Assembly: GCF_044324785.1 (NCBI RefSeq)
Contig: NZ_CP172127.1
Length of the DNA stretch: 64,000 bases
Reading direction: 5' to 3' (one strand)
Source of the DNA: Escherichia coli
GTDB taxonomy: Bacteria > Pseudomonadota > Gammaproteobacteria > Enterobacterales > Enterobacteriaceae
Shown: positions 9,001-12,000 of the stretch, in pieces
How positions within the stretch are numbered: the stretch's first letter is position 1
Layout: each line of letters begins with the position of its first letter
Position numbers: made by a program

Positions 9001-12000
9001 GTCATGTTACAGGCTGGGATGTTCAGGCGTGCCGTGATGCAGTTCAGCATAACTTTAATGCCTGGGTGAAGGAATTCGGCACGGGCAACAGGGAATTTAA
9101 ACAGATGGTTGAACAGGCTGAGGCGTTTTTGTCGTCGTTCGGGTTCAGTCGATACCTTCCCTATCCAAACAGCGACGAGCGTGATTTACCGATTAAAGAC
9201 CTTGCCGGATACAGAAAGGGGAGTATCAGAAACGAAGATGACGAGTTCCGTTTTTACACGTTCCCGCATGTGTTTGAGGGTGAGATAGCACAGGGATTTA
9301 ATCCGTCTCACTTTGCCCGCGCGTTGAGTGCTGCCGGAATGCTGGAAGCGGGAGGCGACCGCCGTTACAAGAAAAAGGCGCTCGGCAGGATTGGCGGGAA
9401 GCAGCATATTTTTTACGTGCTGATGTTCCAGCCTGAAGCAGAAGATTAACTTCCCTGTGTGAGGTAAAAAGTTGCGGGTTATGCGGGTTATCCTGTGCAT
9501 AAGTTAATTAACTGCATGATTAAAAAGGAAATCAATAACCCGCACGTAACCCGCAAAACGGCAGTTATAACCCGCAAATGTGCGATTGTAACCCGCAAAA
9601 TTTCACTGTAAGAGTGTAAACAAGCGTAACTATCACGTTAAAACCGGAGAACAAACAGCATGACGGCGCAAATATCAGCTTACGGGCGGCTGGTGGCTGA
9701 CCCGCAGTTAAAGACCACCAGCAAGGGCACACAAATGGCGATGGCGAGTATGGCGGTCCCCCTTCCATGCAATCAGGCAGATGACGGAACGGCGACGATG
9801 TGGTTATCCGTCCTGGCGTTTGGCAGACAGGCCGACGCACTGGCAAAACACCACAAAGGCGAACTGGTGAGCGTGGCGGGTAACATGCAGGTAAGCCAGT
9901 GGACAGGCCAGAACGGCGAAACGCGGCAGGGCTGGCAGGTTATCGCAGACAGCGTAATCAGTGCGAGAACGGCGCGACCGGGCGGCAAAAAAGGCCAGCA
10001 AGGGCAGGCTACTGACGCACTGAACAGGGCAAAACAACAGGCGGGTAACGACGATCCGTACGGGGACGGGATACCGTTTTAATTCACAACAGCGAACAGA
10101 GTAATTACAGGGGAAGGCATGACAAAGCTGACCATAAACAGAAAACCGAAGGGCATTTACGGCACGCCGCAGAAAACAGCACAGGCGGCGCAGCAGCAGA
10201 ATAAAACCACATCGGCGCATAAAGTGATGCCAGATAACCAGAACACACAGCAGAAGCTCACAGGAGCAACACCGCGGCGGCGTATGACCAAACAGCAGCG
10301 TAAAAACCGCAGACGCGTTAACCGTCTTATTGAGCTATGGCCTGAATTATTCAGCCCGGAATCACCTAAGCCGCTTAAGGTGGGGATATTTGACGACCTG
10401 ATACAGGATATTGCCGCGAGAGGTATTTCACTCGGACAGGGAACACTACGCGCAACGCTGGCGCGTTATGTGCAGACTCCGCGCTATTACCGCGCCCTGG
10501 TAGCTGGTGGCGCGCGTTACGACCTGAAAGGCCAGCCGTGCGGCGAGGTAACACCACTACAACAGACGCACGCAGGAAAACTACTGGAGGAGATGAATGG
10601 AAATAGTAAGAAATGATCACGCACATGGTCGCCGTGCAGGTGATCACATTGTGGATGAAATGGCGGAAAAACAAAGAGTTGACATTATTGTCAGTGTCAC
10701 AGTCGAGAGCGCGAAGCGCCAAAATAAGCGTATAAATGATCGTTCAGATGTACATGGTGTGATCACTCGTTTACGCCAGACTTTTGTAACTCGTGAAGAG
10801 ATGATTGAAGCTATTGACCAGCATACAGCATGTATCAGCGTCAGGGATATACCAGAGATCATTGCTAACTACTTCATGATCACCAGACGCCTTTACCGGA
10901 GAAAAGACAAGAGCACGGTTAACCGTCTCCTGATGTCTGATATTCGCGAATACCTGCAAGAAAGGGGCTATGTGAATCCACCAGAACAGCACTACGGAAG
11001 AGTCGGAGGCTAACTAAAACCCTGTACCGAAGAGCGGCGGCGCGATGGGGTGAAGTAATGCAGTTGGGGAACTGACAAGGAACGGTATTACATATCAATG
11101 CGACGACTGGAATGTTCCAGGAAGGCACAGAGGCCACCGAAGCAACCGGATAATTTAGAAGACCTGAAACGGTCGCTTAAACGCACTGAAAAAGAAATGG
11201 GGATAGATGGGATCGGGAAATCAGTATGGCGTAACTACCAGAAGTAAGCACAGAGCCGGAGCAATCCGGCTTTTTTTTGGCTGAAATCAATCAATCTATT
11301 TTTGTGATAGAAATATATTTATCTACCACTTTTTTCGATCAATAATGTGCATAATTTAGTCATTAAGAGGAAATTGCTGTGAATTGTATTAACGACCTGA
11401 ACACAGGCGATGTCAGAGGTGGTTCCGTTCATCTGGATGCACAGACCGTGATGCGCCTTAAGCAGTACAGAATCGACCATGTGAACAATCACCCTGATCA
11501 GCCATTACCAGGCGTGGCGCAGATTGTCAGACATGCCGTAAACGCCTGGCTTAATCAGAATGGTTTTGCATCGGGGGGTGAGTAATGAATCGCTGGTACA
11601 GCATCAAAGCAGAGGGACGCCAATGTTATCTAACTCAGGTTTTATGAATTCTGACTCCCGATTCAAAATAGGAGGTTACTAATGCCAGTCGTACCAACAG
11701 TATCCGGACGTCAGGTTGAGAGCCGTGGAGTTCAGTCAGCAGGCTTGCAGACGTTTTCTCAGCCAGGTATTGGTGATGCTTTTGTTCGGGCAGGGGCAGA
11801 GGCAATTGATGTTTTTGGTCAGGCAAAACAGCGTGCCAATATTGCCTTGATTCAGGAGGCATCCCTTAAACTCAGTCAGACAGGCAGTGATCTGCTGAAT
11901 AATCCTGAAACAGGATTGCTTAACCTGAAAGGGAAAAATGCTATTGGAAAAGGCCATGAGTATACACAGCAGTTTGATGCTCAGATCGAACAACTGGCTA

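Follow-up and report, generated by a model that had tools for sequence, protein, structure and literature searches.

An ssb gene and a FinO-domain gene beside a putative origin

The window analysed here is a stretch of 64,000 nucleotides (nt) from Escherichia coli (contig NZ_CP172127.1 of assembly GCF_044324785.1), and it contains a 19.1-kb island in which two plus-strand genes lie side by side: ssb (9660-10082), for a single-stranded DNA-binding protein (SSB) of 140 amino acids (aa), and a gene for a 165-aa FinO/ProQ-family protein (10119-10616). The gap from the ssb stop codon to the start codon of the finO-like gene is 36 nt. This arrangement was as described in the original prediction, which had been made by reading the window without database searches and had proposed that a FinO-domain RNA chaperone and an SSB are encoded together on a mobile element. 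Both genes belong to a single string of co-directional, closely spaced genes, which runs through a DUF4222 gene, a DUF927 primase-helicase gene, the origin, ssb, the finO-like gene and perC and is closed by one strong terminator.

A repeat search placed a putative iteron origin at 9464-9609, in the interval from the stop codon of the primase gene to the start codon of ssb; the origin is thus followed immediately by ssb and the finO-like gene, which belong to the replication module. In this origin TGCGGGTTA occurs twice, and an AT-rich spacer of 43 nt separates this pair from four repeats of TAACCCGCA, which run in the other direction and have start-to-start spacings of 11, 21 and 21. In related loci (numbered with L in this work) the layout and position of the origin are constant (L014, L016, L018, L006, L019), while the iteron sequences differ (GGGACAAG, TAACCCGTT and TGAACCAAC). 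A fixed layout with changing iterons is what would be expected if the iterons match each element's own initiator.

The 140-aa protein scored 61 bits against NCBIfam TIGR00621 (cut-off 53.95) and matched PHROG 44 at E=1.1e-39, and its C-terminus, DDPYGDGIPF, is an acidic tip of the SSB type; these matches identify it as a bacterial SSB.

The 165-aa protein is a FinO/ProQ-family member of FinO-type build

Residues 64-162 of the 165-aa protein correspond to model positions 5-102 of 109 in Pfam PF04352 (ProQ/FINO; E=1.6e-23), and the same match is precomputed for all of its close homologues. When the sequences of solved structures were searched with phmmer, ProQ's N-terminal domain (NTD) was the best match (5nb9, 2e-14), and FinO (1dvo, 4e-11), Lpp1663, NMB1681 and RocC were also found. 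An AlphaFold2 model built on 29 homologues had a per-residue confidence (pLDDT) above 90 at residues 58-164, where five helices (58-73, 90-101, 107-118, 121-129 and 146-164) and a two-stranded beta-hairpin (132-134 and 140-143) were predicted. Comparison of the model with the PDB by Foldseek (the original prediction had proposed a comparison with FopA/FinO/RocC structures) returned 26 matches at E<=1e-3, and all 26 were FinO-domain structures (FinO, RocC, NMB1681, Lpp1663), with FinO in first place. Residues K84, K87, G89, D93, R111, Y123 and R133 align with R32, K35, G37, D41, R58, Y70 and R80 of ProQ; Y123 and R133 are invariant in the 29-sequence family alignment, and the PLK.GI motif of ProQ is kept, with K87 and G89 as the equivalents of its lysine and glycine. 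The motifs PLKVGIFDDL and RYDLKGQPCGEV, from which the domain had been recognised by eye, are both present in the protein. Its assignment as a genuine FinO/ProQ-domain family member was thus confirmed by sequence and predicted structure, and we infer that it probably binds RNA through the FinO domain, as in the rest of the family.

The basic extension described before the domain was also recovered: residues 1-63 (nt 10119-10307) carry a net charge of +13 and are disordered in the AlphaFold2 model. The N-terminus MTKLTINRKPKG, with the motif LTINRKPKG, can be aligned both to FinO MTEQKRPVLTLKRK and to the N-terminus of FopA. Between it and the FinO domain (nt 10308-10604) lies a linker of low complexity, which is variable and holds a second basic cluster; the domain reaches almost to the C-terminus and leaves three residues after it. 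Because there is no C-terminal domain, the build of the protein is of the FinO/FopA type and not of the ProQ type.

The ratio of nonsynonymous to synonymous substitution (dN/dS) of the finO-like gene was 0.24-0.40 against five homologues, and that of ssb was tighter, at 0.09-0.20. These values indicate that the finO-like gene is under purifying selection which is more relaxed than that on ssb.

Relation to FinO, ProQ, FopA and PcnR

FinO (1dvo) could be superimposed on the model with a root-mean-square deviation of 2.0 Å over 102 columns, and it shares with the 165-aa protein the mobile-element setting and the succession of a short basic N-terminal motif (KRPVLTLKRK in FinO and LTINRKPKG here), a basic linker and a FinO domain. 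However, identity is only about 29%, and the NCBIfam FinO model NF010317 gave 55.7 bits against a cut-off of 136. There is also no tra operon, traJ or recognisable FinP here, and the gene stands in the replication operon of a satellite, whereas finO comes last in a transfer operon. FinO in the strict sense was rejected because the score is below the curated one and the island has no tra genes.

ProQ has the motifs PLKVGIF and R..Y..R in common with the protein, in addition to being its best match among solved structures, but the 165-aa protein is without the linker and the Tudor-like C-terminal domain of ProQ, and its gene is accessory, island-borne and of variable copy number. The ProQ profile (PRK04950/NF003434) gave 57.5 bits against a cut-off of 127 and was aligned at positions 9-107 of 205 only, so ProQ orthology was rejected. 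The likeness to ProQ on which the original prediction relied thus holds for the N-terminal domain and does not extend to an orthologue.

FopA (YafB of pCol1B9) and PcnR (IncI2) resemble the 165-aa protein in being small, with a basic N-terminus and a FinO domain, and in belonging to mobile replicons, where they are linked to replication control (PMC7491321, PMC8053102); this analogy is the basis for the replication-control role favoured below. Membership of the FopA branch was rejected because BLASTP gave 31% identity over 74 residues (31.6 bits), and only the general N-terminal basic motif is common to both; PcnR was likened by its description rather than by sequence comparison. The replicon here also differs from theirs, having an iteron and primase-helicase origin of the type found in phage-inducible chromosomal islands (PICIs); neither an antisense RNA of the Inc type nor a leader of the repR type is known in it.

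Among deposited phage genomes, the nearest protein was gp26 (SGPHI_0030) of Sodalis phage phiSG1, which is annotated as ProQ/FinO family and has 45% identity over the domain; other entries in the phiSG1 record include a 'DNA transfer protein' and a gene for a tail spike. Unlike the protein here, gp26 has 115 aa and is without the long basic N-terminus, and no SSB was detected nearby by tblastn. The 165-aa protein belongs to the heterogeneous mobile-element branch of the FinO family described in PMC9977716.

Gene order and distribution of the finO-like gene

A scan with a 12-sequence alignment gave 14 loci, and the synteny counts given here rest on a few dozen loci. E. coli, E. albertii, Salmonella and Citrobacter share the order DUF4222-primase-origin-SSB-FinO-PerC, and in Rosenbergiella we found DUF927-origin-SSB-FinO-PerC with no DUF4222 match. 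SSB and FinO genes are adjacent in at least nine related loci. SSB is missing yet primase, origin and FinO gene are kept in E. coli 55989 and Serratia oryzae, and a capsid-forming PICI-like element has a RepA-helicase, SSB and PerC without FinO. The steady neighbours of the FinO gene are thus the primase and origin upstream and perC downstream, and SSB is optional. A second context, which is the commoner one in E. coli, is formed by CP4-57-like islands with YagK/YfjJ and AlpA, in which the FinO gene occurs alone and is often frameshifted. The pairing with SSB that had been pointed out in the window is therefore real as an adjacency and not obligate, as E. coli 55989, Serratia oryzae and the lone-gene islands demonstrate, and SSB appears to be a separate replication accessory in the same operon, not a dedicated partner of the FinO-like protein.

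Homologues were found in 1077 of 5426 complete E. coli genomes, about a fifth, with one to nine places per carrying genome. The intact allele occurs at >=99% identity in 44 complete E. coli genomes, and the identical protein is encoded on at least 1000 contigs; library-wide, 1929 clusters (50% identity) match the 165-aa protein at E<=1e-3. A plasmid origin of the gene was rejected because all 1538 places in E. coli are chromosomal and the tblastn matches on plasmids are ordinary FinO, with about 31% identity. Location on a mobile element, as originally supposed, was upheld, while the plasmid and conjugation framework was not: the element is a PICI-like satellite integrated at a tRNA gene.

The region downstream of the finO-like gene

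Between the finO-like gene and perC lies a chimeric ORF (open reading frame) of 138 aa on the plus strand (10597-11013), which overlaps the end of the finO-like gene. Megablast against P1-like phages and plasmids, followed by alignment, showed that about 150 nt of its 5' part (10614-10766) are 83-85% identical to the part of P1 pacA that contains the pac site (described in PMC10028697). Of the seven TGATCA/G hexamers, four are retained, as is the central stretch GCGAAGCGCCAAAATAAGCGTATAAATGATCGTTC; the stop codon of the finO-like gene falls inside the first hexamer, and the pacA-like segment replaces the usual C-terminal tail of the FinO-like protein. The ORF was found in this lineage only and is absent from the relatives L016, L018, L005, L006 and L034. 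The satellite may have captured this segment as a packaging signal of the P1 type.

The perC gene (11022-11247, plus strand) is named "PerC family transcriptional regulator, frameshifted" in RefSeq, and three-frame translation agreed with this. It is frameshifted in this island and in all near-identical copies, and intact in more distant relatives. An overlap of the finO stop with the perC start, of 4 nt (L016, L018, L005, L034) or 11-14 nt (L006, L019), occurs in most relatives, and it suggests translational coupling of finO and perC there. An intrinsic terminator found by our scans (GCCGGA-GCAA-UCCGGC followed by U8; 11252-11281, plus strand) closes the ssb-finO-perC unit and folds at -18.7 kcal/mol (z=-2.4), and terminators stand in the same position after perC in L016, L014 and L005. 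The region at 11.0-11.3 kb, which had been proposed as a locus for an antisense or small RNA, therefore turned out to be the same-strand frameshifted perC gene ending in the terminator of the operon.

On plasmid pAA of E. coli 042 (L033, 552-1456), a finO gene is followed by a small gene for an ANR-family regulator, an arrangement that resembles the FinO-PerC pairing of the satellites. The PerC-like protein of EcCIMP1, an experimentally verified E. coli PICI, was suspected by its authors to be ANR-like (PMC11773190).

Proposed role of the FinO-like protein and alternative explanations

FinO domains bind a hairpin with a single-stranded 3' tail and a free 3'-OH, typically an intrinsic terminator, and their binding protects the RNA and speeds sense-antisense pairing (PMC9977716, PMC9674577). 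Members borne on plasmids control how their own replicon is transferred or replicated; examples are FinO and FinP/traJ, FopA and Inc/repZ (PMC7491321), PcnR and the repR leader (PMC8053102), and FinO and RepX (PMC8136791). The explanation that we favour, tentatively and at somewhat less than an even chance, is that the FinO-like protein binds a terminator hairpin and so regulates the satellite's own replication operon. When the early/replication operon of the satellite is on, the FinO-like protein would be made alongside the replication proteins and would bind RNA via the 3' hairpin and U-tail of an intrinsic terminator; the bound RNA of the element would be stabilised, or helped to pair or refold, and the outcome would be post-transcriptional tuning of replication or of PerC expression. 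The parallels on plasmids would be FinO with FinP/traJ, FopA with Inc/repZ and PcnR with the repR leader. Only two strong canonical terminators lie in the island's regulatory and replication part: the one at 11252-11281, and another on the minus strand (5818-5800; -15.1 kcal/mol, z=-4.5), where a unit of two minus-strand genes ends. The terminator 11252-11281 and the minus-strand transcript ending at 5818-5800 are the best candidate ligands in the window. The suggestion in the original prediction that the protein acts on an RNA of the element, or on the targets of host ProQ, is plausible.

Several results weigh against this explanation. No cognate RNA was found for the FinO-like protein. With Rfam, applied at the gathering threshold to the whole window and at E<=1 to 2900-11700, the only match in the island was the int-alpA RNA, and there was no C4, isrK or FinP-like match in it. 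No non-coding sequence travels with the FinO gene in 13 loci of both contexts (600 nt upstream and 500 nt downstream), in which all shared sequence was coding or belonged to context-specific flanks. The search of the element for antisense transcripts, which had been recommended with the original prediction, also gave no convincing antisense gene in the replication module: scans of both strands, in the window and in seven relatives, yielded no convincing pair of promoter and terminator; the minus strand of the replication modules had weak hairpins inside coding regions only, and promoter-like sites were fewer than in shuffled sequence. A C4 antisense RNA does lie upstream of icd in related islands, including EcCIMP1 (L006, 3791-3878; L018, 4236-4424; L009, 23717-23944), and L018 and L009 also carry isrK. 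However, C4 and isrK were rejected as partners of the FinO-like protein because they are absent here and present in EcCIMP1, which has no FinO gene. EcCIMP1 and the capsid-forming PICI-like element are related satellites without a FinO gene; because many such satellites replicate without it, the gene must be considered accessory. Many of the E. coli copies in CP4-57-like islands are, in addition, far from any primase.

As an observation apart, the C4/isrK region of the related islands resembles the RNA immunity module of the P1/P4 type, and its place is taken here by two small minus-strand genes.

The main rival is that the protein acts in trans outside the island, competing with or mimicking host ProQ or binding RNAs of a helper phage, and thereby reprogrammes host or helper expression. 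We consider this possible but rather unlikely. It agrees with the finding that the best single sequence match in the PDB is the ProQ NTD, with RNA-binding residues in common, and with the lack of a cis-encoded partner RNA in our searches; the presence of the gene alone in unrelated islands also fits a self-sufficient trans factor. ProQ itself binds many prophage and island RNAs (PMC9977716), and the island has other functions directed at a helper, namely antirepressors, Icd, epsilon15 core proteins and the P1 pac-like site. However, all characterised FinO-domain proteins of mobile elements have primary ligands encoded by the element (PMC9977716, PMC7491321, PMC8053102), and the place of the gene beside the origin and its overlap with perC point to the element's own programme.

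It is improbable, and less likely than action in trans, that the protein works with SSB on DNA replication intermediates instead of RNA, for instance on hairpins or single-stranded 3' termini where the iteron origin is unwound. To our knowledge, no DNA-directed member of the FinO-domain family exists. The gene follows the origin and ssb immediately, within one operon, and the SSB-FinO adjacency recurs; both would suit such a role, but L020 and L034 are among several loci that keep primase, origin and FinO without SSB, and the capsid-forming element has SSB and PerC without FinO. In addition, the synonymous divergence (dS) from L016 was 0.26 for ssb vs 0.55 for the finO-like gene, which suggests separate histories, and according to the reviews cited above FinO domains recognise A-form RNA hairpins with a 3'-OH U-tail.

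Equally improbable is that the gene is a dispensable or decaying passenger in the island. The frameshift in the adjacent perC, the foreign pacA-like segment in place of the usual C-terminal tail, the many frameshifted paralogues in other islands and the related satellites without the gene could all be read in this way, but the frame is intact and 99-100% identical in the 44 complete genomes mentioned above, besides the contigs with the identical protein, dN/dS is 0.24-0.40, and all RNA-binding residues checked are retained. A role in anti-phage defence was rejected because SSB, the FinO-like protein, the primase, the 138-aa ORF and the further small ORFs that were tested all went without a PADLOC match.

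The annotation of the gene is already in RefSeq ("ProQ/FINO family protein", WP_021543045) and the gene is common, so this is not a new kind of system. Uncharacterised FinO-domain proteins borne by phages and islands have been noted in reviews (PMC9977716), and the name FopA itself refers to "plasmid/phage" (PMC7491321). In the papers searched, we found no placement of this FinO subfamily in a PICI-like replication module beside the origin and overlapping perC, and no link between FinO/ProQ and PICIs except a remark on episomal marine satellites; the papers on PICIs and satellites that were checked were silent on ProQ/FinO and SSB. A wider proposal, which we regard as speculative and rather doubtful, is that FinO-domain proteins form an unrecognised regulatory layer of Gram-negative phage satellites, which is expressed from the replication operon, translationally coupled to PerC, and either binds an RNA of the satellite, helper or host, so that replication and gene expression of the satellite are timed to helper infection, or displaces host ProQ from its ligands. 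If true, an RNA chaperone would for the first time be assigned to a PICI-type satellite, and the target specificity of FinO domains could be studied in a tractable system, with up to nine paralogous places per genome. FinO-domain proteins are one main family of bacterial RNA chaperones, and FinO, FopA and PcnR of mobile elements each revealed RNA control of transfer or copy number; the identity of the target would show whether satellites use RNA chaperones for their own replication or for host and helper RNAs.

The host island is a PICI-like phage satellite

The island is bracketed by a 19-bp direct repeat of the 3' end of tRNA-Gly(CCC), whose gene (1488-1561, plus strand; found by ARAGORN and Rfam) is the integration target. 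Exact repeat search placed the left attachment (att) repeat, TTCCCTTCGCCCGCTCCAA, at 1544-1562 and the right one, which is the island end, at 20689-20707. All the protein genes listed below are on the plus strand. The island begins with a tyrosine integrase gene (1687-2940; PHROG 1, E=7e-79), and just after it lies the int-alpA RNA (2985-3052; RF02996, 46.9 bits). A 65-aa small helix-turn-helix regulator of the AlpA type (4094-4291) was taken from the ORF list and assigned by its likeness, judged by eye and not by a hidden Markov model, to the Phage_AlpA in the same position of the relatives L006 and L007. A Rha/Ant-type antirepressor (4367-5191) and a Bro-N protein (5184-5741) were assigned from PHROG and from the RefSeq annotation of the same genes. 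The Icd-like gene (6568-6771), an 85-aa ORF (6764-7021) and the DUF4222 gene (7024-7326) are closely packed 5' of the primase gene, and Icd and DUF4222 were named from PHROGs and the RefSeq annotation of an element with 98.8% identity. The DUF927 primase-helicase of 708 aa (7323-9449; PHROG 1139 DNA primase, E=4e-174; RefSeq DUF927) is the presumed replication initiator.

Beyond the perC terminator there is a 68-aa ORF and then three large genes (11682-19029) for virion core/ejection-type proteins of 843, 686 and 925 aa (PHROGs 992, 1145 and 684), which are the only virion genes of the island. The last of the three proteins has 88.7% identity to a virion structural protein of epsilon15. The three genes are best seen as a cargo or hijack module of the island, and they suggest an epsilon15-like helper, or interference with one.

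The island has the genomic features of PICIs, namely att repeats, an integrase, AlpA, a primase followed by iterons, a size within about 10-20 kb and an incomplete set of structural and lysis genes, and we class it as a PICI-like phage satellite integrated at a tRNA gene. Similar elements are EcCIMP1 and other Gram-negative PICIs (PMC11773190, PMC6092414), which also have int, AlpA, an antirepressor, DUF4222, Icd, a DUF927 primase, podovirus ejection-type proteins and PerC; EcCIMP1 is also integrated at a tRNA gene and about 19 kb long, and its Kapi1-like ejection genes are paralleled by the large virion-type genes here. Unlike the island here, EcCIMP1 has neither an SSB nor a FinO gene. In other E. 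coli strains the element of the window recurs, 98.8% identical over 14.3 kb, at a site between yicC and dinD, and its integrase module there is a different one.

Two minor features of the left part of the island were also observed. The copy of the int-alpA RNA is without the U-run after the outer stem of the family consensus, and its fold was no better than that of shuffled sequence. The palindrome TGTGCGCACA occurs twice, 14 nt apart (6437-6470), in the divergent intergenic region 5' of the Icd-like gene; the pair resembles operator sites, and as RNA it would fold into a hairpin of -17 kcal/mol.

Beyond the island, the window is E. coli chromosome, and Rfam found the OmrA/OmrB small RNAs at 59.2-59.5 kb. 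Directly after the island (20897-41000) lies a type III secretion cluster with SctC, SctV, SctN, SctQ and PrgH/EprH, the first gene of which is a 550-aa ORF (20897-22549) without a family match. This cluster is presumably the ETT2 island known beside glyU.

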